From the IMG/VR virus record IMGVR_UViG_3300025138_000015: a stretch of 64,000 bases of DNA. The stretch is one strand, 5' to 3'. This DNA is from a virus. Each line of letters begins with the position of its first letter. Within the stretch, counting starts at the first letter, position 1. Below the pieces are notes generated by a model, which ran no database searches, was not told the origin of the DNA, and was given only the letters and a program-made list of their open reading frames with translations. The position numbers were made by a program, and so were the translations under genes. Positions 36,939 to 60,321 of the stretch are shown here, piece after piece.

Positions 36939-37703
36939 TTACTTGGAGTATTTCTTAATGAGGTCAAACAGTTTTGATGGTTCATACTTGTTTTTCTTCC
37001 TCACTATGGGTACATTGGTAGATACCGATGAACCTGTTGCATTTATAGGTGCGTCCTCTTCAAGTTTTGTGTATTTGAAATACTTCATAACTTGGTCTGC
37101 AATTTGATATGCACACATTTTATCGGAAGGATAATGAACTCCTGCATCAATTCTTCCTTGTGCAGATTTATCTGCATTTAAATGTAAATTTGTTTTGTGT
37201 TCTGGATAGATTGAACTGTAATAATGTGCAACTACCTTTGCCTGTAGGGCATGATTAGACGGATATGAAGGTGAATCAGTTGTATCAGTCTCCATGTAGT
37301 CATATTTGATGCCTAGTTTCTCTGCAACTTGTCTTGGTCTAGGTCTTTGAAACTCAATCTTATAGTGTCTACCAATATGTTTAGCTGCATCTATAATCTT
37401 TTCTATATCATCTAGTTCCCACGACAGGTCATTATTAGACATATACTCTTTCATATAATATGATGTATCATGGTCTGTATTGATGTATGCTTTCTTCTGT
37501 TCGTCTGATAAGTTCTGCATGTTTTTTACCATGCCTTCTATCTCTCTTTTTGTTTGTGTTGATGAGTTTGCAGGTGGTGGTGTGACATCAATGTCTTCCA
37601 TCCAACCATCTCTGAATAGTTTCTTTGCTTCTTTTGGTTTAAACTCTTTGGTTATTTTACCATATTGAAGATTGTCTATTTCTAATACTTCTTTAATATA
37701 CAT
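36939..37703 (-). CDS. PAP2-family phosphatase
   Basis: K...QRPRP, SYPSNHA, GRIDAGVHYPSD. Confidence 0.85.
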   Translation of the reverse strand: MYIKEVLEIDNLQYGKITKEFKPKEAKKLFRDGWMEDIDVTPPPANSSTQTKREIEGMVKNMQNLSDEQKKAYINTDHDTSYYMKEYMSNNDLSWELDDIEKIIDAAKHIGRHYKIEFQRPRPRQVAEKLGIKYDYMETDTTDSPSYPSNHALQAKVVAHYYSSIYPEHKTNLHLNADKSAQGRIDAGVHYPSDKMCAYQIADQVMKYFKYTKLEEDAPINATGSSVSTNVPIVRKKNKYEPSKLFDLIKKYSK

Positions 37704-38362: not shown

Positions 38363-38734
38363 TTATAATTCCCTTAATCTTTCTGCAAGTTCAAAATCAA
38401 TATTTATATCAGTATTCCAACTTTCATCGATATATCCTAGATACAATAACATTGTTTTGACACTTGGCCAATATGAGTCTTCTTTGATTTTAAACTTTAA
38501 CATTCTCATACATGCCTCAAAACCAAAGACATTGAATAGTGTTATAAGGTGGTTTAACATGAGTCTTTCTCTCATCTCACCATTTTCGTGATAACGATGT
38601 AATAATCGTTTTAGATATCTGAATCTTCGTAAGTCTTCTTCGAAGTCCTCAATGTCGGTGCATTGAGGGTCATCGTAGTTTTGCAGTGCGAATGCACTGA
38701 AGTTTTTTGCGGTTAGTTTGTCAAATAGACCCAT
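38363..38734 (-). CDS. Conserved-type T4-like hypothetical protein
   Basis: YDDPQC...F.EDL.RF.YLKRLL..Y...G...ERLMLNH...NVFG. Confidence 0.8.
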   Translation of the reverse strand: MGLFDKLTAKNFSAFALQNYDDPQCTDIEDFEEDLRRFRYLKRLLHRYHENGEMRERLMLNHLITLFNVFGFEACMRMLKFKIKEDSYWPSVKTMLLYLGYIDESWNTDINIDFELAERLREL

Positions 38735-39250: not shown

Positions 39251-39637
39251 TTAGATAGAACCGTATACCTTGTATGAACCGTTTTCTAACATTTCATACT
39301 TAACTTTAAGTGAAACAATCTTCTCTTCTTTTTCTATTTCGTCATATGGTGTATCTACTGATTTACCCATGATTTCACCATAACGAGAGAAGTTTAAATC
39401 AAATTCACCTGACTCAGAAAACTCCATATCTTCGTTTGAAACTGGATTCAAACCGATTTGTGAAAGTTTTGACTTCATCTGTTCAACGGCTGCCTGTGGA
39501 TTCATGTATTCTGACACTGCAACATGTCCTAAGACTGCGTTTACTCTCGCAACAACATCTGCATCGTCTAATTCATAAGGTGCTTGACCATTTTCAAGTC
39601 CTGAATCTTCGAATAAAAAGTTTTTAAATGTTTTCAT
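39251..39637 (-). CDS. Probable head-internal protein
   Basis: N-terminus MKTFKNFLFE resembles the T4 capsid-targeting sequence. Confidence 0.65.
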   Translation of the reverse strand: MKTFKNFLFEDSGLENGQAPYELDDADVVARVNAVLGHVAVSEYMNPQAAVEQMKSKLSQIGLNPVSNEDMEFSESGEFDLNFSRYGEIMGKSVDTPYDEIEKEEKIVSLKVKYEMLENGSYKVYGSI

Positions 39638-45412: not shown

Positions 45413-45943
45413 TTACCAGAAAAAGTCTCCACCACCACTTAAACCTAGTTGTTTTGCGTAGTGTGGTAGTCTGCAAGCCCAATATCCTGCTGTTGTTTTG
45501 TCTGTTTTATTTTTGCAATCATGTCTTGCCGCAAATGAGTCAGCAGCTTTTTTGTTATTGATTTTGACTTTAAGACCTGTTGTATCACCCCATGTGATTT
45601 TCTTTATTTTGTCTCCGTCTTTTACATAGACATAATATTTTTTAGGACCACCAACTTTAGGTGAGTTGAGTTCTGGTTCTTTTTCATCTTCTTCAAACAT
45701 AGGGCAGTCTAAAGGCACTAATTCACCTTCATATACTTCAAATGACCCTACATCAGTTTCTAAGATGTTTTTATCAACTTCTGTTAGTGTATATTTGTTT
45801 TCTGATACTAATCTTCTTGCCTCGTTGATGCATTCGAAATACATCATAGAACCGAGTCTAAATGGATTGTCTAAAAGATTAGTTTTATTGGATTGCATTG
45901 CATCTAGGGTTTCCTCGATTGCAACCTCTTTCAATGTTTTCAT
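45413..45943 (-). CDS. Probable head-internal protein
   Basis: MKTLKEVAIEE; GGPKKYYVYV, SFAARH.C, AGYWAC. Confidence 0.7.
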   Translation of the reverse strand: MKTLKEVAIEETLDAMQSNKTNLLDNPFRLGSMMYFECINEARRLVSENKYTLTEVDKNILETDVGSFEVYEGELVPLDCPMFEEDEKEPELNSPKVGGPKKYYVYVKDGDKIKKITWGDTTGLKVKINNKKAADSFAARHDCKNKTDKTTAGYWACRLPHYAKQLGLSGGGDFFW

Positions 45944-45945
45944 AA

Positions 45946-47328
45946 TTATTTGTCTATTACTTCAAATTCTTCATTTGCAGGATAACCTTTTAATGGATTA
46001 CCAAACACATCTTTAAAGTTTTTCTTTGCTCTCACTTGTTGTTCGTGAAATGCTTTTTCGGTTTCTTTAATATATGCTTCTTCTGACTGACCTGGTGTGT
46101 CTGCTTGATATTTCTTTCTGATATCATCTGTTCCTAATTCACAAACACCATCATCAGATACATTACCTTTACCTGGCATCATTTCTTCACCAAACTTTAA
46201 GAATAGTTTACCTTTCTCTTGTGACTTATCAGTCACTTTATGACCAACCATTGAACCGATAGTGTTAATCATACCAAGGCCTTTCTCGGGATTTTTCTCA
46301 TACTCTTTTTCTAATCTTTCTCCAACTTTTTTAGTAATCAATTTAATGATATCTATAGCTGAAGTGACTAGTTTACCTTCATTGACTTCACTGATAGGTA
46401 CACAATTTGGTACTTGTTTACCATTTTTTGTTTTGAATCCTTTCTGAACATAACCATCCCAGCATGCTTCTTCTAGTTTCTCCTCATTCTTATTCTTATT
46501 TTTTCTATCATAGTCTTTAATCGACTTCTTTGCAGACTTCATCATTGCTTTTTGATGTGCCTTTTGTTGAGACTGATTTCTTTTTCTCATTACATCTGAA
46601 TGTCTTTCTTCTATAGATTCACCTCTAACTTTATCTGCAAGGTCTTTGTCTGCCTTACCCCATGTGCCAGAACCTTTAGTGATAAAAGAATTTACTCTTG
46701 CATGTCCCCATTGCTCAGGAGTTGTGCCAGGTCTATGACCAGTTCTCCATGCAGCGACACCTCTTTTGTATACTTGTTTGAGTATACCCATAGATATGCC
46801 TGTTTTGTCGGCTTTCTTTTTGAGTGACTTATCGGCAGCACCTTCTTCTTCTAATTCGACTTCTTCTCGTTGTGCTTCTCTCTGTTTTTGCATCAACTCG
46901 TTTTCTTTTTCTTTGTCGTCTTCTGCCTTTTGTTTGTCGTTTTCTTTTTCGTGTTTCTGTTTTAACTTTTCGACTTCTCTTTCGTGTTTGTCTTTTTGTC
47001 TATCTTGTTCGTCTGCTTGGTTTGCTTTCAGTCTTGCAGCGGCAACTGCATCTTCACCGAACATTTTTTTGAATTTCTTTGTGTGTTTTGAGGGTTTTGT
47101 TTTTGCTTGTGCATCACCTGGAGCAGGTTCATATGCACTAGAATCATCATCGTCTTTCTTTGCACCCTTTTCGAAGTGCCTTGCTCTATCTTGTTTAGTA
47201 GACTTTGCAAGTTTATCATCACCTTTCTTATCGAAGTATTTCTTAGGTTGAGTTCCGTCGCGAGTTTTCACATCTTTATCTTGTGCTACTTTCTTTGCCT
47301 CGGCGATATTTTGGTCTAATATATCCAT
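45946..47328 (-). CDS. Modular probable head-internal protein
   Basis: LKQVYKRGVAAW..GHRPG.TP.QW..ARVNSF and CWDGY...G.K...VPNCV modules separated by E-linkers. Confidence 0.72.
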   Translation of the reverse strand: MDILDQNIAEAKKVAQDKDVKTRDGTQPKKYFDKKGDDKLAKSTKQDRARHFEKGAKKDDDDSSAYEPAPGDAQAKTKPSKHTKKFKKMFGEDAVAAARLKANQADEQDRQKDKHEREVEKLKQKHEKENDKQKAEDDKEKENELMQKQREAQREEVELEEEGAADKSLKKKADKTGISMGILKQVYKRGVAAWRTGHRPGTTPEQWGHARVNSFITKGSGTWGKADKDLADKVRGESIEERHSDVMRKRNQSQQKAHQKAMMKSAKKSIKDYDRKNKNKNEEKLEEACWDGYVQKGFKTKNGKQVPNCVPISEVNEGKLVTSAIDIIKLITKKVGERLEKEYEKNPEKGLGMINTIGSMVGHKVTDKSQEKGKLFLKFGEEMMPGKGNVSDDGVCELGTDDIRKKYQADTPGQSEEAYIKETEKAFHEQQVRAKKNFKDVFGNPLKGYPANEEFEVIDK

Positions 47329-47337
47329 AATAACTAT

Positions 47338-48624
47338 TTATCCTTTTTTCTTCAGTAATAATTCGTATTCTCTCCAAGAAGTTGCCTTCTTGTTACCAGG
47401 AAATTTAGATGACCAACCTTGTAGATAACTATAAAGTTTTGATGCCTTTGCATCTAAGGATTTTATATCATCATCGTTTGAGACTTCTATAAAGTCTTTC
47501 TTAAAGATTCCTCTGAATTGTTTTAGATTCTTTTGAGCTGAATCCCAATCACCTTTTACAATTTCAGGTGGTAATTTTCTTGCTCTCTTTTCATTTCGTT
47601 TTTGTGCATTGTCTAATGATGCACTGACATATATCATTTTGTACTCATACCCTAATTCATCTAACATCTTCTTATAGTTTACAATTTTAGATGATTTAGC
47701 ACTGGTAGTATCAAATATAAGACCAAGTCTGCCGTTAATGTATCTATCCATTGCATTACCTGTAATCTTTTTTGCCTTGGCACGAATACCATCTCTGACA
47801 TTTGAATCAATATTTCTTAAATCTAGGGATAATCCTGCTTTCTTTAGACCTGATTCAAAAGCAGTATCAGTATTGACAAGTTTTAACCCTAATGCTTTCA
47901 GACCGAGTTTTCTAACAACAGTAGATTTACCTGAACCTGGACCTCCCATTAAGAACACTGCTTTGAATGTTCCTGGGTCATAGACTCCCTCGTCTATTAA
48001 GTCTTCTATCATATAGTCTGGTAGTGTTGACTCAACAATACCCATACCTTTACGAATATCTTTGTATAGATTCTCTATATCTTTTTTGTTTCTTGTAGGA
48101 ACTCCTTTAGAGAATGCTTCGAAATCACCTTGTTCTGCCAAGGCACGGAGTTTTGATGCACTCATTCCTGAAACATCATCGGCATCTGGGTCTCTTTCTC
48201 CTGCAGATACTATTTGTATATCATCGAACTTATAATATCCATGTCTTGCTTTGACACCATTGTATTTCTTTAACAACATCTCAAACTCTTTGACTCTATC
48301 TGAACCAACGACCATTTTTACTCTGTTGTAATTTTGTTTCTGTAGTTCATTACATATATCGAATACAGTTCTTGCAGCGACATTTGCAACTATTCTACCA
48401 AAGAATTTTTGAAGGTACTTAATCTTGTCTTTATGTGATAGTGGATTTTTCTTAGGGTCATTTGAGTGTGATGTGAATAACATTACTTGATACCCACCAC
48501 TTGATTCTTTTTTAAGTTTGTCTACTAACTTTGCATGACCTGTAGTTGGTGGATTGAAACGACCAAAGGTGAATACTACGCCTTTATCTTTTCCTTCTTT
48601 TAAAAATGAACTTAATTTTTTCAT
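47338..48624 (-). CDS. HIGH-superfamily nucleotidyltransferase (cytidyltransferase-like) fused to a P-loop kinase (zeta/Pnk/AAA_33-like)
   Basis: FTFGRFNPPTTGH, VVGSDRV, SAGERDPD, MSASKLR; GGPGSGKS, N.D, IFDTT, RN..R.R. Confidence 0.88.
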   Translation of the reverse strand: MKKLSSFLKEGKDKGVVFTFGRFNPPTTGHAKLVDKLKKESSGGYQVMLFTSHSNDPKKNPLSHKDKIKYLQKFFGRIVANVAARTVFDICNELQKQNYNRVKMVVGSDRVKEFEMLLKKYNGVKARHGYYKFDDIQIVSAGERDPDADDVSGMSASKLRALAEQGDFEAFSKGVPTRNKKDIENLYKDIRKGMGIVESTLPDYMIEDLIDEGVYDPGTFKAVFLMGGPGSGKSTVVRKLGLKALGLKLVNTDTAFESGLKKAGLSLDLRNIDSNVRDGIRAKAKKITGNAMDRYINGRLGLIFDTTSAKSSKIVNYKKMLDELGYEYKMIYVSASLDNAQKRNEKRARKLPPEIVKGDWDSAQKNLKQFRGIFKKDFIEVSNDDDIKSLDAKASKLYSYLQGWSSKFPGNKKATSWREYELLLKKKG

Positions 48625-49826
48625 TACTTATCCCAATTCTTTTGTGCAGTGAAGTTATTATATGCAAACTCCATTCTATCTACTAATTTAACTGCACTTC
48701 CTGTTTTGTCTATTGCAACATAACCTTCAGGATTTACAACTTCAAAACCTGTTGCAGTCTTTTTGAAAGTTCCTATACTCTTTACTCTATTTAGGGCAAC
48801 AATGATTATCTGTTTTGCAATAACAAGGCCTTCCATAAACTTAGTTAGATTGGTAATGAACTTGTTTAATGCACGAAGTTCGTTATATAATTGTTCACCA
48901 ATCTCTCTCTTAATCTCTTTAGTCTTTTCCATTTTAACTTTTCCAACTACTTTATCTCTCCAATAGTTCTCAAAGTGTTTCATGTATCCTGCATATGTTG
49001 GTTTAAAAGTACCACCTCTAATTTGTGCATTACAGTATGTCTTGTAAGATGCACCTGCACCCTTTTGATTTATTGTTGACTGTAATTCCATAAACTTCTG
49101 TAAGTCTTTCTTAGTGATACCATGAAATGATTTACCAACTCCTGATAAGACCTGTGTAAGTTTAAGTGTTTCTTTTGCAGTCATTGTGGAGTTTCCAGAC
49201 ACATCTTTATATGTTGCATCATCTACCCATACATCTGATGAACTACCTAGACTTGATGTATTTGCACCAAAACTGGCACCTAAATCTTCGATTGTAGAAC
49301 CACTGTATGTAGTATGAAATACAATTCCCATTTTAGAACTTGCAATAGTTTTACCTAACTTAGAGTTTACATCTACTGCATACATGATTGTATTTGGTTG
49401 AAATGTAATGAATGATTTACCATCTATCTTAGTCGTTTTCTTATCGTTGGTGTACATCAAATCACCTTGCATGATTGTATTCCAAGATAACTTAGATAGA
49501 TATTTAAATGATGTTAGAAACTTTTCTTTTAATTGACCTGAGAGTTCAGATGCATCGTTGATTTCTTGTTCTGAAGTATAGAACAATGGTGTCTTATTGA
49601 ATAGTGATTTCTTTGCAACGAAGAATTGACTTGTCTCTGGATGTTTTCCACAAAAGATTGCAGGTGCACCATCCCATTTAACAGTCATGTTTACAGAACT
49701 GTTAGAATTTCCTTTCAACATGTCTCTTAAACCTTGTAGAAAGTTTATTGCACCACGACCACCATCAATCCCTTGATTGATAATCTCGTCTTCTAAGTGT
49801 TCTAAATGTAGATTTTTTGCGCCCAT
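48624..49826 (-). CDS. Conserved phage protein (DUF6267-like) with ATP-dependent ligase-type motifs
   Basis: TVKWDG, QGDL, FQPN, PEGYV, VKLVDR in ligase motif order. Confidence 0.7.
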   Translation of the reverse strand: MGAKNLHLEHLEDEIINQGIDGGRGAINFLQGLRDMLKGNSNSSVNMTVKWDGAPAIFCGKHPETSQFFVAKKSLFNKTPLFYTSEQEINDASELSGQLKEKFLTSFKYLSKLSWNTIMQGDLMYTNDKKTTKIDGKSFITFQPNTIMYAVDVNSKLGKTIASSKMGIVFHTTYSGSTIEDLGASFGANTSSLGSSSDVWVDDATYKDVSGNSTMTAKETLKLTQVLSGVGKSFHGITKKDLQKFMELQSTINQKGAGASYKTYCNAQIRGGTFKPTYAGYMKHFENYWRDKVVGKVKMEKTKEIKREIGEQLYNELRALNKFITNLTKFMEGLVIAKQIIIVALNRVKSIGTFKKTATGFEVVNPEGYVAIDKTGSAVKLVDRMEFAYNNFTAQKNWDK

Positions 49827-49888
49827 AATAGTAGATTATACACCTTTTTAATGTGTTTGTCTACTATTTATGTGTTTTGGAAGTTGTG

Positions 49889-53012: not shown

Positions 53013-54299
53013 TTATCTACCTACTTGTCCGAGATATTTGTGTTTGGTTTCTTCCCATGACATCATTGCAATATCATCGTAGAAGAGAGTATCATCTAGT
53101 CGTTGTCTCTCTGAATTCATCAGATTATTGATTCTTTTGGCAGCGTATTTCTCTTTCCATAGAGTGGTAAGACCCTCTGTAGAGAAGTCTTGTGAACGAA
53201 CTAGTTGGTCTTCTTTAATCTCACCTCTTAGAAACTCTCTGGAGTTATCATATAAGGCAGACCAGTAGATACCTCTTTGGTGGTCTGAACGAATAATGTT
53301 CTTAGGTATTTCTAGTTTAGGGAATAGAAAACTTCTGAATCGATTTCTATGGTCTCTTTTCCAAGGTTGACCGTTCTCTCGTGTTGCTACATAAAGTGAG
53401 AAGAATCTATCGTTGTAGTTCTTTTCTCCGTACTTCAGCATCTCGCGTTCGGTGTCTTTGGTCAATTCGTATGTCATAGAACCATTTGAGTATCCACATT
53501 TCTTCCAATGTTTGAGTCTATCGTATTGTGATAAACCACCTGTCTTGGATTTACCATATAAAGATGTAGTTGTGACACTGACTAGTTTATTACCATAGTT
53601 TTCTTCCCACTGTTTCTGTATATCTTCTGATAGACATAGAAGTGCAAGTAGTTTTCCACCTGTGTAGTTATACCCTAGTGGTTGTAGTGGTACAATTGTA
53701 GAACCAATACATGAATGATTTAGAATACCACTGTTGGTTTTGAAATCTCTTTCCCAACCGATATGATTATCACGAGGAGTCAAGTCAATGAAATCACCTG
53801 TGATACAGATAACTCCAAGATATTTTCCTGTTGGTTTATCTCTGACAACATAGTGTAGATTTCTACCGATGTTAGAAGAGTTCTTCATTGTGGATGTAAA
53901 TGTTCTGATACAATTCCAGATTTCTGACCATGAACCTGCAGAGAAGTTATCGTCTCCTTCTTTTGAGGTGTATATCAATTCTGGTTCTAGTTTTTCAAAG
54001 TCTTCATATGAATTAGGCATCCATATATTACTCTTCACTTCGTTGATGAGTTTTACATGTTTCTCATTTACGAATTGTTTCTCTGAACCGAATAGAGTTC
54101 CTATCTCATGTGTAGGATATTTACGGTGTATCTCTTGATACTTCAAGTACAAAGTGTATTCTTCTACTGACATTTGAGATACAAAAGATAAGTCTTCTGT
54201 AATTCTATCTCTCATCATAGACCTGCCTATTGCATCAGGTTCTACATAGTTTTCTTTATACTCTTCGTATTGTTTCTGTATTAGTTTATCATCAAACAT
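53013..54299 (-). CDS. DUF4338 (DruA-like) domain protein, paralog 1
   Basis: GRNL.Y.V.D..TGKYLG, PRD..IGW, IVPLQPLGYNYTGGKLLAL, TTTSLYGK..SQY. Confidence 0.75.
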   Translation of the reverse strand: MFDDKLIQKQYEEYKENYVEPDAIGRSMMRDRITEDLSFVSQMSVEEYTLYLKYQEIHRKYPTHEIGTLFGSEKQFVNEKHVKLINEVKSNIWMPNSYEDFEKLEPELIYTSKEGDDNFSAGSWSEIWNCIRTFTSTMKNSSNIGRNLHYVVRDKPTGKYLGVICITGDFIDLTPRDNHIGWERDFKTNSGILNHSCIGSTIVPLQPLGYNYTGGKLLALLCLSEDIQKQWEENYGNKLVSVTTTSLYGKSKTGGLSQYDRLKHWKKCGYSNGSMTYELTKDTEREMLKYGEKNYNDRFFSLYVATRENGQPWKRDHRNRFRSFLFPKLEIPKNIIRSDHQRGIYWSALYDNSREFLRGEIKEDQLVRSQDFSTEGLTTLWKEKYAAKRINNLMNSERQRLDDTLFYDDIAMMSWEETKHKYLGQVGR

Positions 54300-55683
54300 T
54301 GAAATCCTGGTATTTTTCAGCACCTCGGTTTCTATCAAATACTGGTACATCATCACTGATATTTGTGCCACTATCTACTAGTTCCTCTTGTGCATCTTGT
54401 TCACAATCGTATAACTTCATACGACTTCTATCGATACCAATGACGAATCTTTTGAAGACTGTTGGGTCATTGTATCTATTCTTTAACTGTTTGACTACCA
54501 TTTGGTCTAACTCTTCTAGTTCTTCTGAAGAGATTAGTGCAAACATAAAGTCTGCAGTTGCAGGTAAACCAAATGATTCTGAAGTATCTTCAAGACCAAT
54601 ATCAGTAGAACCAAAACCACTTCTTGTAGTCTGAGTTGCACTCATAATTGGTACATCAAATTCTACTGCAAGTCCTCTAAGTTCTTCTGCAATACTCTTC
54701 ACTAATGTGTATGAGTTTGCACCTGCACCTGGTCTTATTCTATGTGAAGAACAGATGTTTAGATAGTCAATGAATATCATATCAGGTTTGAAATCTTTTT
54801 TGATTTCTAGTTCTTGTAATAGATGTCTAAAATGACCGACATGTGCCGATGCAGTAGGATATTCTTTGATGATAAGTCTGCCTTTAGTTTTTTGTGCAAT
54901 CTTTTCAATCTTTTTATCATACTGTTTCTTAGATAAATCAGGTAAATCTTTCATAGGAATGTTCAATGTATTTGCATCGATTCTCTCTGCAATTCTTTCT
55001 TCTGACATTTCAAGTGTAATGTATAGTATGTTCTTGTTCATCATCAAACCAGCAGATGCCATATGACACATGAATAAGGACTTACCAACACCAGTACCTG
55101 CAAGACATATATTAAGTGTTTTGTTTGGAAGACCACCTTTAGTAATCTTGTTAAAGTATTCTAAGTCAAACGGAATCTTCTCTTCTTCTGTATGATAGAA
55201 TTCAAATCTTGCTTCTGCATCTTCAATCTGGTCATGACCAATATTTTGGTCAAATGATACAGATAATGCATCTTTCAAAAGTTCAGGTATTTCACCAGTA
55301 GACCTTTGAGATTTCTTATCGATAACCTCAATAGAATCCATGACTGCAATATAGATTGCTCTATCTTTGCACCACTTCTCAGTCTCTTCAACGAGCCAAT
55401 CCATTGGAGTTGTCTCTTTGTCGAATTGACTGATTACGGTTTTAGACATTTTCAATTCATTCTCGTTAATAGAAGTATTGTTGTCTAAGTTTATGAGAAG
55501 TGCTTCCGTAGTAGGTGGTTTAGTATACTTCAAGAAATACTCTTGTATCTCTTTAAATACTACCTTCTCGTCACTCTCGGTGAAATACTCTGATTTTAGG
55601 AAAGGTAAAACCTTCCTAGTAAAGGGTTCATTCTGAATCAGATTCTTCAGGATTGTCTGTTCTAATCTCGCTATTGCTTCCAT
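54292..55683 (-). CDS. 41: Replicative helicase gp41
   Basis: [42 protein letters not shown]. Confidence 0.97.
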
Positions 55684-56686
55684 ATTTAAACTCTGTGTTA
55701 ACTGCTTGTTCTAGTGATTCCATAACTTCTTCTGTGAAGTATTTTTCAGGATTATTGTTAATGGTTTTACCAAATTCGGTTTTGCCATTCGGTAATTTAA
55801 CTCTCGTTGATGATTTCTCAAAAACACCATGTTTGAGTGCAAGGTCTAGTAGACCATAATACCTATCAAGACCAGTGTCATATGATAATCTCACATCAAC
55901 AACTTTGTTCTCAACAGTAAGTCTGGACTTTGCATTCTTACAGTGAATAATATTACCGATAATATCTGTTCCGTCTTTTTCCTTTCTCTTAGAGAGATAG
56001 ATAATTGATGATGCAGCGTATTTAAGACCACTACCACCACCCATTTCTTTTTGTGGGAACATAGAACCAATTACATCGTAAGTATGGTTAGTGACAATCA
56101 TAGGAACTTTTGCTCTTCCGAGTTTTAAAGTTAACACTCTGAATGCACCTTTTACAATTTGGGCACGAGTCATATCTTTTGTCTCTTTGCCCTCTGCAGT
56201 ATCTTCGATTTCTTTAGTAGTTGATAACATACCAAGTGAATCTAATACAAACATCATAGGTGGTCGTTCTGACTCATCTGTTTCTAAATATTTGTCTAAG
56301 ATACTTATTGATTGAGTTCTGAACTGTTGAACAGTCACAACTGGTACAATAACGATTCTCTTTGAATCTATGCCTCTGTCTTCAATCATTTCTCTTGTGA
56401 TTGCAGATTCAGATTCAAAGTAAATTACTGCAGCGTCTGGATTATCTGAAAGGAATTGTTTCACTATTCCTAATGCAAAGAAAGTTTTTCCTGTTGCTGA
56501 TTCACCTGCAATTGCAGTAATTTTATTTTTGGGAAGTCCACCGTGTAGTGAACCGGAAAGGAGTGCATTGAATATATAACTGCCTGTGTCTACAAACGAG
56601 TCTACATCTCCTGCTTGAACTCCGTCAGCAACAATACCTGCGTACTCATTGCCTGTTGATTTGATTAAGTCTTTCAAAAAACTCAT
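55628..56686 (-). CDS. uvsX: RecA-like recombinase UvsX
   Basis: [30 protein letters not shown]. Confidence 0.95.
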
Positions 56687-57804: not shown

Positions 57805-60321
57805 TTATCCAAAGAAACTATCAAGACTTGCAACTGGTTCTACATTCCAGTCAATAAGATTGATAATACCTTTGAGTGGTTCAATGAATGCCTTATCAAA
57901 CTGTAAGTCATAATCAACATACTTCTGTATGTCAAACTCACGAGGCAGAACCGATAAGAATGAGATAACATTCTCTTTTATTGGGTTTGGTGTTGTAAGA
58001 TATGTAAAGTGGAGTTTATCTCCGTTCTTTATCAACTCATATCTTTTATCTAAGTTTAGTTTCTCTAAGTGGTGATTGTAAAGTAAGGCACCTCGGACAT
58101 GTATGGGTGTACCCTTTGAGTAGATGTTTGAGTTGTCATGATATTGTTTAATATTATTACACCCTCTTGGTGAGGCAATCTCTTCTACAGGTAGATTTCT
58201 GAATTCCTTTCTTGTTGTTTCAACAAATTCCCACAATTCATTCTCTGTTTTAGTCATTACAATATTCAATGCTTCAGTAAGTTTCTTTCTGACCCATTGT
58301 GGAGTTGAAGACTTTGCAGTTTCAATACCCATCATTTTTAATTTAGGTTCTCTAAGTCTTACACCCTCATTGTCATATACATTTAGAATGTATCTTTTCT
58401 TTGCAGTCCAGATACCTCTATCTGCAATTACTTCACGACCCATTTCCATTTTCTGTTGAAATGAATTTGTGTAATCTTTAAGGTCTTCAAAACCCTCTCT
58501 TAATGCCTTCTCAATTTCAACTTCAATCTTACATAAGAAGTCAACAACTTTACTCTTATCTTTTTGTTGTTCTGGTGTGAAGATTTGATTTACTAAATCA
58601 TCAAGTGTGATATAGATTGAATCAGTGTCCATTGCAACGATGTAATCTTTGTTTGTCTTTAGAACTTTGTTTAGATAATCATTTGCAGTTTTCTCTGACC
58701 ACTTAATTACTAATTGACCTGCAGTAGTGACTGACTCTGCAAGTTGTGGGTCAAAGAATGCAAACCATTGATTAGCAAGAACACCATATGCACTGTTTAA
58801 AGAAATCTTTCTGACCTGTTGGTTGTTGTATGCTCGTTTAATTCTAACTTCGAGTTTTTTCTTTTCAATAGGGTCGTCACATACTTGTAGTTCTTTCTGA
58901 TAACCAATCATCTTCTGTTTGTATTCCTTTCTCTCATCGTATAATGTTTCCATGAGTTCTGGAAGAAAACCTTGTTTGTCTCTTTTGAATTTAACACCGT
59001 TTGGTGTGACTGTTAGATTCTGTCTTTTCAATTCAGATAAGTCAATCGTCTTGTCTAACATGCCTGCAATCTTGGTGTCCATAAGACCAGTCTTTACCAT
59101 TTTCTCTGGTGAAATATTAAACTGCATGATTAGATGTGGATAAAGAGAGTTCAAGTCAAACGACATAACCCAATTATGACCACCGACTTGTGGTTCTTTT
59201 ACATATGCACCTTCAATACGATGATTCTTTCCGTCTCGTCTTAATGCCTGAGGTGGTGTTTGTATGCCTTGTTTCTTCAGATGATTATAGATGATTGTTT
59301 CCCAATACTTAACCATACCGAATGTGTCATTGTAATTACACTTGGCAGAATATGCCATAACGATTGTTAGTTCTAAGAATCCAAGTTTCTCTTCTAGTTC
59401 TTCAACAAGAACTGCATCTTTAACATTATATGCAAGGAACTTTGAGTAGTCTTGTTTGTAAAGTGTGTGTAGATTGCCATACTCTGAGTAATCAATCTTA
59501 CCTGTATTGAGTTCTACTTGTGAAATGTGTTCTAGTTTATATGACTCTTGTGTTTGTGGGGTATGTTTACGATACAAGTCTAAGTAATCTACAATACTGA
59601 TACCATAAAGATTGAATGTCTGTTGTTTCTGACCAAAGTTAGACATGTATTCTCTGACATCTGACATACCCCATGGTGATAATTTCTTATGTTCATCTTG
59701 ACCAAAAACTTTATCAATTCTATTACAAAGATATGTGATATCAAATGAATCTACATTCCAACCTGTGATAATATCAAAAGAGGCCTTTCTCCAGAATTTG
59801 ATGAACTCTGTTAGAAGTTGTGCCTCGTCTACACAATTATAGTAAACACAATTGGCAGGTTTTTCATCCCAAGGACCTAGACCGAAGACATGTGTATTAT
59901 GACCGAAAGGTTTGATTGCAATTGCATTGACTTTCTCACCTGCAATCATTGGTTCTGGAAAACCATCTTCACATTCACACTCAATATCAAGTGTTGCAAT
60001 TCTTACTTTCTTTGTGTCGTATTCGAAATCTGTTGGGAACTTATCTGAAATATAAGTGTAAACATATCTATCATAACCATGTATTTCCATACCTGCAGTT
60101 TGATGATATTTTTCTCTGAACTTTCTGGCACCACCCATTGAGTTGAGTTCTACAACTTCAAGTGGTCTGCCGTCTAGTGATTTGTAAGGTGTGTCACCTT
60201 TTCTGGAAGGAACAAAATGTTTAGGTCTATAATCGACCTTCATTTTTACCCTTTTATTGCCTTGATAACCTGTGACTAGTATTTTGTCGCGAGTACGACA
60301 TACATTTGTATAAAAATCCAT
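57805..60321 (-). CDS. 43: Family B DNA polymerase gp43
   Basis: DIECE, GWN..FD, YN.KD, SFDLNSLYP, K..LNSAYG, DTDS. Confidence 0.98.
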   Translation of the reverse strand: MDFYTNVCRTRDKILVTGYQGNKRVKMKVDYRPKHFVPSRKGDTPYKSLDGRPLEVVELNSMGGARKFREKYHQTAGMEIHGYDRYVYTYISDKFPTDFEYDTKKVRIATLDIECECEDGFPEPMIAGEKVNAIAIKPFGHNTHVFGLGPWDEKPANCVYYNCVDEAQLLTEFIKFWRKASFDIITGWNVDSFDITYLCNRIDKVFGQDEHKKLSPWGMSDVREYMSNFGQKQQTFNLYGISIVDYLDLYRKHTPQTQESYKLEHISQVELNTGKIDYSEYGNLHTLYKQDYSKFLAYNVKDAVLVEELEEKLGFLELTIVMAYSAKCNYNDTFGMVKYWETIIYNHLKKQGIQTPPQALRRDGKNHRIEGAYVKEPQVGGHNWVMSFDLNSLYPHLIMQFNISPEKMVKTGLMDTKIAGMLDKTIDLSELKRQNLTVTPNGVKFKRDKQGFLPELMETLYDERKEYKQKMIGYQKELQVCDDPIEKKKLEVRIKRAYNNQQVRKISLNSAYGVLANQWFAFFDPQLAESVTTAGQLVIKWSEKTANDYLNKVLKTNKDYIVAMDTDSIYITLDDLVNQIFTPEQQKDKSKVVDFLCKIEVEIEKALREGFEDLKDYTNSFQQKMEMGREVIADRGIWTAKKRYILNVYDNEGVRLREPKLKMMGIETAKSSTPQWVRKKLTEALNIVMTKTENELWEFVETTRKEFRNLPVEEIASPRGCNNIKQYHDNSNIYSKGTPIHVRGALLYNHHLEKLNLDKRYELIKNGDKLHFTYLTTPNPIKENVISFLSVLPREFDIQKYVDYDLQFDKAFIEPLKGIINLIDWNVEPVASLDSFFG

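Follow-up and report, generated by a model that had tools for sequence, protein, structure and literature searches.

Several described systems resemble parts of the gene pair considered here, which lies on the minus strand at positions 47338-49826 of the viral record IMGVR_UViG_3300025138_000015, a stretch of 64,000 nucleotides referred to below as the window. Bacteriophage T4 encodes the RNA ligase Rnl1 (gp63), which has a C-terminal tRNA-specificity domain, and Pnk (PseT), in which a kinase domain is combined with a HAD phosphatase domain; the two rescue tRNAs cut by host anticodon nucleases. The Rnl5-type enzyme of Naegleria gruberi, NgrRnl (PDB 5cot/6vt1), carries an N-terminal accessory domain in addition to its nucleotidyltransferase domain. 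In NadR, a transferase of the HIGH superfamily is followed by a P-loop kinase. The gp21 protease of T4 removes, after their entry into the prohead, the ten-residue leader of the internal head proteins IPI, IPII, IPIII and Alt. These proteins are a diverse set with only the leader in common, and this leader sends otherwise unrelated internal proteins into the prohead core (PMC3012670). The window encodes a protein of the DUF6267 family that is predicted to have the adenylyltransferase fold, together with the near-invariant active-site residues, of ATP-dependent RNA ligases. Directly behind it stands a fusion predicted to consist of an NMNAT-type adenylyltransferase and a kinase of the Pnk/PSTK/zeta type in the layout of NadR. 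The best explanation of the locus as a whole, to which we give a probability of about one half, is that the fusion is packaged in the virion and acts at the start of infection alongside a DUF6267 sealing enzyme that forms Lys-AMP. Both open reading frames (ORFs) are as a first-pass annotation of the sequence had described them, and the TAATG overlap that it had noticed between the DUF6267 stop and the fusion start is present; the fusion gene is translationally coupled to the DUF6267 gene.

48624-49826, minus strand: DUF6267 protein of 400 amino acids, putative RNA-ligase-like covalent nucleotidyltransferase, without capsid-targeting leader (Pfam PF19782, AF2 model, VIA)
47338-48624, minus strand: fusion of an NMNAT-like transferase and a P-loop kinase, 428 amino acids (Pfam, Foldseek)

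The product of 48624-49826 matched Pfam DUF6267 (PF19782) over residues 5-396 (E 1.9e-100, 337 bits against a cut-off of 27) and also belongs to the unannotated phrog_455. The family is large. All 8,000 candidates scored in a word-index search matched DUF6267 at E 0.001 or better, 2,541 clusters were counted at 50% identity, and between 403 and 464 phage genome records carry a member. Nearly every cyanomyovirus has the gene, as do pelagimyoviruses and related phages. A literature search found no paper naming DUF6267 and no published function, and a protein atlas search returned unnamed viral clusters only. Comparison with PDB sequences, using phmmer and the family profile, gave only spurious coiled-coil matches. 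The window protein matched neither the RNA_lig_T4_1 nor the RNA_ligase model of Pfam, nor PF01068; among 101 representatives of the family, four matched RNA_lig_T4_1 weakly, the best at 6e-4. Comparisons of the family by hhalign with the single sequences of T4 Rnl1 and Rnl2 and with a 36-member Rnl1 alignment were not significant, and the sole part aligned was the segment holding motifs IV and V, which reached E 0.004 in one comparison. This local match covers T4 Rnl1 residues 223-243, including E227, G228 and K240, with identical spacing.

The five motifs that had been quoted from the DUF6267 protein as those of covalent nucleotidyltransferases are all present: KWDG at residues 50-53, QGDL at 120-123, FQPN at 142-145, EGYV at 367-370 and VKLVDR at 379-384. 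Their conservation was counted in the 101 representatives, which are mostly 35-50% identical to the window protein.

49668-49679, minus strand: motif I, KWDG, with Lys50 as the presumed nucleotidyl acceptor (K50 in 100/101, D52 in 100/101, G53 in 101/101)
49458-49469, minus strand: motif III, QGDL, with Asp122 instead of the usual Glu (D122 in 101/101; model strand 118-125)
49392-49403, minus strand: motif IIIa, FQPN, with the aromatic residue Phe142 (F142 in 99/101)
48675-48728, minus strand: motifs IV (EGYV) and V (VKLVDR) (E367 in 100/101, G368 in 101/101, K380 in 101/101)

R384 is also nearly invariant among the representatives, and further conserved polar residues of the family are H7, H10, K73, H171, N266 and K338. 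Judged from these sequences, the conservation of the motifs is more than chance, and Lys50 is the presumed covalent acceptor of the nucleotidyl group. In the structural model, the motif residues occupy the expected strands (118-125, 137-142, 368-372 and 378-382) in the order III, IIIa, IV, V.

This model was built with AlphaFold2 (AF2) from the 101-sequence alignment and had a predicted local distance difference test score (pLDDT) of 92.5 and a predicted template modelling score (pTM) of 0.88. Exhaustive structural alignment with 48,161 chains placed RNA ligases at all of ranks 1-9. The highest Z was obtained with Naegleria Rnl (8.2), followed by three entries of fungal Trl1 (7.8, 7.7 and 6.9), trypanosome REL1 (7.6), two entries of T4 Rnl2 (7.3 and 7.1), T4 Rnl1 (6.6) and archaeal Rnl3 (6.5). 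In a second structural comparison (VIA), nucleotidyltransferase domains of ligases made up 47 of the 50 top chains, and the best was again Naegleria Rnl, with Z 8.5 and a root-mean-square deviation (rmsd) of 3.8 over 183 residues, its entire domain. DNA ligases scored no higher than Z 6.2, as against 6.6-8.5 for RNA ligases. In a viral structure library, the first named proteins beyond members of the family itself were RNA ligases of phages and giant viruses. The model and the structural comparisons thus support the ligase-type covalent nucleotidyltransferase fold that the first-pass annotation had proposed. That annotation had also listed outcomes that would count against it, among them a fold other than a ligase and a failure of the two genes to co-occur in relatives; the three that could be computed all turned out in its favour.

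The predicted catalytic core differs from those of the described ligases in where its additional domain is placed.

48792-49178, minus strand: helical insertion, residues 217-345, between motifs IIIa and IV (DSSP on the model; N266 and K338 nearly invariant)

In the model, this insertion of about 130 residues bundles with the N-terminal helix 11-38, and the bundle holds the conserved residues H7, H10, N266 and K338. The protein has no OB domain, and the chain ends 16 residues past motif V with one helix only. Rnl1, Rnl2, Rnl3 and Rnl5 have an accessory domain appended at the N- or C-terminus; the DUF6267 protein has instead the inserted helical bundle. NgrRnl is the best match of the nucleotidyltransferase domain (Z 8.2-8.5 over about 183 residues, NgrRnl domain 143-339), and it likewise is without an OB domain. 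However, the two proteins are only about 10% identical with no detectable sequence relation, and the N-terminal accessory domain of NgrRnl stands against the N-terminal helix and 130-residue insertion bundle of DUF6267. T4 Rnl1 and the ligase domain of fungal Trl1 also share the predicted fold (Z 6.6-7.8). T4 Rnl1, like DUF6267 an enzyme of T4-type phages, aligns with it in motifs IV and V as EGYVA...K at identical spacing. Unlike Rnl1, DUF6267 is without the C-terminal tRNA-specificity domain and has one Lys in motif V, and the comparison of whole profiles was not significant. A leader of the packaging type is found on most members of DUF6267, but Rnl1 is not a packaged protein.

The second gene of the pair had been described as a HIGH transferase joined to a P-loop kinase, and on this point Pfam, Foldseek and VIA agree. 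The quoted motifs GRFNPPTTGH and GGPGSGKS stand at residues 21-30 and 227-234, respectively, and the model shows two domains with a disordered linker between them.

48031-48588, minus strand: predicted HIGH-superfamily transferase domain with GRFNPPTTGH and SGMSASKLR (VIA Z 13.6 with NadM, 12.8 with M. jannaschii NMNAT, 12.4 with PPAT)
47980-48030, minus strand: predicted disordered linker with the protease-type sites IVE/S, MIE/D and IDE/G (pLDDT below 50 at residues 199-209)
47392-47979, minus strand: predicted P-loop kinase domain with GGPGSGKS, NTD, FDTT and KRNEKRARK (VIA Z 15.2 with PSTK, 15.1 with C. thermocellum Pnkp, 13.3 with zeta toxin, 13.2 with T4 Pnk)

Pfam matches of the fusion were CTP_transf_like (7.4e-8, residues 19-125, above the cut-off) and, over residues 221-377, AAA_33 (1e-11) and Zeta_toxin (1.4e-8). 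The transferase also matched NCBIfam nadR_NMN_Atrans at 5e-6, and it has the NMNAT signatures (H/T)xGH, as PPTTGH, and SxxxxR. Archaeal and bacterial NMNATs, NadM included, scored VIA Z 12.7-13.6 against this domain. The best whole-protein match of the fusion in Foldseek was NadR, with the same order of transferase and kinase, and the transferase is closest to NadM and archaeal NMNAT. Unlike NadR, the fusion has no helix-turn-helix domain, and its kinase is more like those of Pnk, PSTK and zeta toxin than the ribosylnicotinamide kinase family of NadR; the corresponding model, AAA_28, matched only faintly (0.048). In addition, the fusion has TxGH for HxGH, an apparent capsid-targeting leader and a linker that is probably cleavable. 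The kinase domain aligned with T4 Pnk by BLASTP at E 1e-5 over 163 residues, with the P-loop, both Asp residues and KRNxKR kept. By VIA, T4 Pnk was matched at Z 13.2 (rmsd 2.8, 145 of 152 residues), and the Pnkp1 kinase of an RNA-repair complex at Z 12.2. Unlike T4 Pnk, in which only the kinase half aligns (T4 residues 3-149), the fusion has no HAD phosphatase domain, its kinase is joined to a transferase, the position of Arg38 is taken by Phe, and the segment NTDTAF is nearer to DNDTF of zeta toxin. Profile comparison with the PDB ranked zeta toxin, which phosphorylates a small molecule, first for this domain, and the neighbours of the kinase also include the NAD kinase AvrRxo1. Given the alignment with T4 Pnk on one side and the zeta toxin profile on the other, polynucleotides and small nucleotides are both possible substrates. 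A CoA synthase, in which PPAT would be paired with dephospho-CoA kinase, was considered and rejected: PPAT is near NMNAT in score, but the kinase has no sequence match to CoaE.

The first-pass annotation overlooked what, by comparison with the T4 proteins, is a T4-type capsid-targeting leader on the fusion and on most members of the family.

48595-48624, minus strand: capsid-targeting-like leader MKKLSSFLKE with an L-x-E protease-type site (compared with T4 ipII and ipIII; kept in homologues; disordered in the model)

In the T4 record, ipII and ipIII start with MKTYQEFIAE, ipI with MKTFKEF and Alt with MELITELFDE, and the window leader shares with these the ten-residue length and the ending [LI]-x-E. 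Homologues of the transferase have leaders of ten conserved residues with the same ending, for example MKTFKDITE and MKTYQRFMTE. Within the loci, the leader was counted on 33 of 46 transferases and on 44 of 71 DUF6267 genes. Among the 101 representatives, 52 (strict pattern) to 62 (loose pattern) have it before the conserved NxHLEHxED start of DUF6267, as compared with a background of 4 of the 78 ORFs in the window. The DUF6267 gene of the window has no leader; four codons before its ATG, the reading frame is closed by a TAA. Syn9 likewise has a leaderless DUF6267, but in Melnitz and DLP6 both DUF6267 and the transferase bear the leader. The start MDILDQNIAE of the DUF5824 protein encoded downstream is plausibly also a leader, and an [LI]-x-E-G site before the kinase domain is kept in both fused and stand-alone kinases. 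Homologues of the transferase have been detected in purified virions, together with their downstream neighbours, in studies of cyanophages (PMC9146016, PMC10665884, PMC9602691). The published proteomes cover at least four such cyanophages, S-SZBM1, S-CREM2 and S-SCSM1 among them. In S-SZBM1, the proteome includes the leader-bearing transferase; the DUF6267 homologue, which starts MAKNTHLEH and is leaderless, is not listed. The known internal head proteins of T4 are small inhibitors or an ADP-ribosyltransferase, whereas the putative cargo here consists of nucleotide-handling enzymes, sometimes in one polypeptide. Leader-like starts, MQGFKTFLSE and MKKFSELTSELIE, were also seen on genes 15 and 17 of Methylophilales phage Melnitz (4887-5972 and 7209-7601), which flank its DUF6267 gene, so the candidate packaged block of that phage may begin upstream of DUF6267.

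Linkage was surveyed in 48 viral loci in which the sequence continues for 3 kb or more past the DUF6267 gene. A transferase gene follows on the same strand in 42 of them, sometimes fused, which bears out the co-occurrence in relatives that had been predicted. DUF5824 lies downstream in 33 loci and is joined to the transferase in 16, and the domain of the window ORF 45413-45943 is found in 23. The kinase is present in just 20 of the 48; it was not found in Syn9, S-SZBM1 or the soil Stenotrophomonas phage DLP6, and in Melnitz it is unlinked. The conserved core does not include the kinase. Fusions of several kinds were seen, namely transferase-kinase, transferase-DUF5824 with the domain of the 176-residue protein of ORF 45413-45943, DUF6267-transferase-DUF5824, and DUF6267-transferase with RimK and a Zn protease. 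The last of these is represented by a metagenome protein of 1325 amino acids (P0233), in which DUF6267, the transferase, a RimK ATP-grasp domain and a Zn protease form a single polypeptide; in some phages the RimK-protease enzyme, too, may be carried in the head. The gp41 gene lies upstream in 36 of 42 loci. DLP6 retains the DUF6267-transferase pair in another gene context, and jumbo phages have transferase homologues without DUF6267. Two such stand-alone homologues, both leaderless, are found in Escherichia phage 121Q (6004-6537) and Pseudomonas phage 30-3 (6001-6573). The name given to the former, 'ribonucleotide reductase A', is apparently a mistake that has passed from record to record.

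The window has a G+C content of 34-39%, and all listed ORFs of at least 150 amino acids between 33 and 64 kb are on the minus strand. Since its nearest isolates are Melnitz (52% protein identity), cyanomyoviruses and Pelagibacter phage HTVC008M, the source is an uncultured marine T4-like myovirus. A replication block of T4 type lies just upstream of the pair, and two further genes of the conserved block follow it.

57805-60321, minus strand: DNA polymerase (replication block)
55628-56686, minus strand: UvsX (replication block)
54292-55683, minus strand: gp41 helicase (replication block)
49865-49872, minus strand: T4-type late-promoter-like box CATAAATA, read directly (consensus match only)
49835-49863, minus strand: sigma70-type promoter-like site TAGACA-17-TATAAT (11 of 12 consensus matches)
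45946-47328, minus strand: Lys/Glu-rich DUF5824 protein starting MDILDQNIAE (Pfam DUF5824, E 2.2e-16; same conserved block)
45413-45943, minus strand: protein of 176 amino acids starting MKTLKEVAIEE (its domain is joined to a transferase-DUF5824 protein in other phages)

The sigma70-type promoter and the late-type element that had been reported before the DUF6267 gene are thus both in place, each as a consensus match only. The site TAGACA-17-TATAAT is the best promoter-like site within 7.5 kb, although such sites as a class are not enriched across that interval (18 found against 27 expected). As 8 nt separate the -10 box from the ATG of DUF6267, the transcript would be almost leaderless. The sequence GGATAAATAGTTATT stands at 47329-47345, directly before the ATG of the DUF5824 gene and overlapping the stop of the fusion gene, and its word ATAAATAGT recurs upstream of the DUF6267 gene. 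Because it is found before both genes, ATAAATAGT may be a local form of the late promoter. Literature searches on DUF5824 and on 'cytitidyltransferase' found nothing. Two other ORFs on the minus strand were recorded. One, at 38363-38734, belongs to another uncharacterised family of the same gene block, DUF7207 (Pfam, E 4.8e-41). The other, at 39251-39637, encodes 128 amino acids without a Pfam or PHROG match and starts with MKTFKNFLFE, almost the MKTFKEF of T4 ipI; it is a candidate small internal head protein.

In the favoured reading, the prohead would take up the fusion together with the DUF5824 proteins encoded downstream, and a gp21-type protease would there cut the packaged proteins at [LI]-x-E sites into separate enzymes. 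Leaving the head along with the DNA, these would be active in the opening minutes of infection. DUF6267 would form Lys50-AMP, transfer the AMP to a 5'-phosphate end and close an RNA or DNA strand at a nick or break. Packaging would extend to DUF6267 in most relatives; in the lineage of the window, whose copy has lost its leader and is preceded by a sigma70-type promoter, the protein would instead be an early product of the infected cell. If a kinase is present, it could provide 5'-phosphate ends or phosphorylate a nucleotide, and NAD+ or a similar dinucleotide is the most likely product of the transferase. The enzymes may share one pathway, or just a delivery route as co-packaged cargo. Several observations weigh against this reading. 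The best Z of 8.5 is 'middling' on the scale of the tool, a Foldseek search of the PDB with the complete DUF6267 model gave nothing at E 0.001 or better, with unrelated helical adhesins in the top rows, and no significant profile link was found between DUF6267 and any ligase family. Motif III has Asp for Glu, and motif V has one Lys and not two. The leader pattern is short, its counts are inflated by related sequences, and DUF6267 is not listed in two cyanophage virion proteomes. A T4-like synteny is common to most loci, so that adjacency is only partly independent evidence, and the stand-alone homologues of jumbo phages indicate that the transferase does not need DUF6267. On the fold, the agreement of two aligners and three structure libraries makes the match to RNA ligases convincing despite the middling Z. 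That DUF6267 might be a non-catalytic internal head protein with a relic ligase fold would suit its place as the first in a cluster of Lys/Glu-rich proteins that are packaged and the deviations of motifs III and V from the ligase consensus. This is very improbable, since a relic site would not be so conserved: each residue of the ligase motifs recurs in 99-101 of the 101 representatives, as do H7, H10, K73, H171, N266 and K338 nearly throughout.

Three other explanations take DUF6267 to be active. It may belong to an injected cofactor module, in which a NadR-like fusion for NAD(P) salvage would sustain or rebuild the NAD pool, turning NMN into NAD+ with a kinase acting on a riboside or on NAD, and this dinucleotide would also be the substrate or the product of DUF6267, which might for instance be an NAD+-dependent ligase or transfer AMP to small molecules. 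NadR as the best whole-protein match, the proximity of the transferase to NadM, archaeal NMNAT and nadR_NMN_Atrans, the kinase neighbours zeta toxin and AvrRxo1, and the lone transferases of jumbo phages are consistent with such a module, and a role in NAD metabolism has been proposed in cyanophage proteome work (PMC9602691). It is nevertheless rather unlikely, as PPAT (Z 12.4) scores near the NMNATs (12.8-13.6), AAA_28 is hardly matched, the first His of HxGH is Thr, nothing links the ligase fold to NAD synthesis, and many relatives dispense with the kinase. The first-pass annotation had put forward a cytoplasmic heal-and-seal system like T4 Pnk and Rnl1, rescuing tRNAs cut by host anticodon nucleases, possibly with a PAP2 protein as phosphatase. 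RNA ligases as the nearest folds of DUF6267 and the likeness of the kinase to those of T4 Pnk, C. thermocellum Pnkp and Pnkp1 speak for it, but a T4-style pathway is not supported and we consider it unlikely. The kinase accompanies DUF6267 in fewer than half of the loci and has zeta toxin as its best profile match, the fusion is without a Pnk-type phosphatase domain, and no phosphatase, 2H or Tpt1 enzyme that could heal 3' ends was found in four relatives. The suggested PAP2 ORF (36939-37703, minus strand) reached 25.7 bits against the Pfam cut-off of 27.2, has no PHROG match and lies 10 kb away. In addition, the invariable partner is an NMNAT-like transferase without a role in the T4 pathway, and retention in nearly all cyanomyoviruses is unlike an accessory counter-defence gene. 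A pathway of the Trl1/Tpt1 type with NAD+ as co-substrate was dropped because neither Tpt1 nor a 2H phosphoesterase was found in those four relatives. Finally, DUF6267 might be the missing replicative DNA ligase, a gp30 analogue, of cyano- and pelagimyoviruses, with the adjacent transferase reflecting conserved gene order only. In Melnitz, S-SZBM1 and Syn9 it is the only ligase-like protein found: no ATP- or NAD-dependent DNA ligase and no Rnl1 was detected in them, nor an Rnl2-type RNA ligase in Melnitz, whereas T4 has those ligases and no DUF6267. The gene also follows the polymerase-UvsX-helicase block, and the window copy has an early-type promoter and no packaging leader. However, DLP6 carries a canonical ATP-dependent DNA ligase together with a DUF6267-transferase pair away from its replication genes, so DUF6267 is not simply the replicative ligase. 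The leader-like start on more than half of the family, the in-frame DUF6267-transferase fusions, the lack of the OB domain and motif VI of DNA ligases, and the lower Z of DNA ligases also make a replicative role improbable.

The ligase-type active site offers a lead on how marine T4-like phages without a known ligase seal nucleic acids, and also on the purpose of the NMNAT-like proteins that have turned up repeatedly in virions of cyanophages. A helical domain inside the catalytic core of a ligase would be of enzymological, perhaps practical, interest. The leader in common with the T4 internal proteins suggests that the enzymes are delivered with the DNA, which would broaden the repertoire of injected phage proteins. 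A further-reaching claim, with the odds against it and offered only tentatively, is that DUF6267 constitutes a new family of nucleic-acid ligases belonging to the core gene set of those marine myoviruses that are most abundant; a T4-type leader would bring it into the capsid, and it would enter the cell with the genome and the NMNAT-kinase. If true, this would be the first virion-delivered kit for sealing or repair and cofactor supply, active before any phage gene is expressed.

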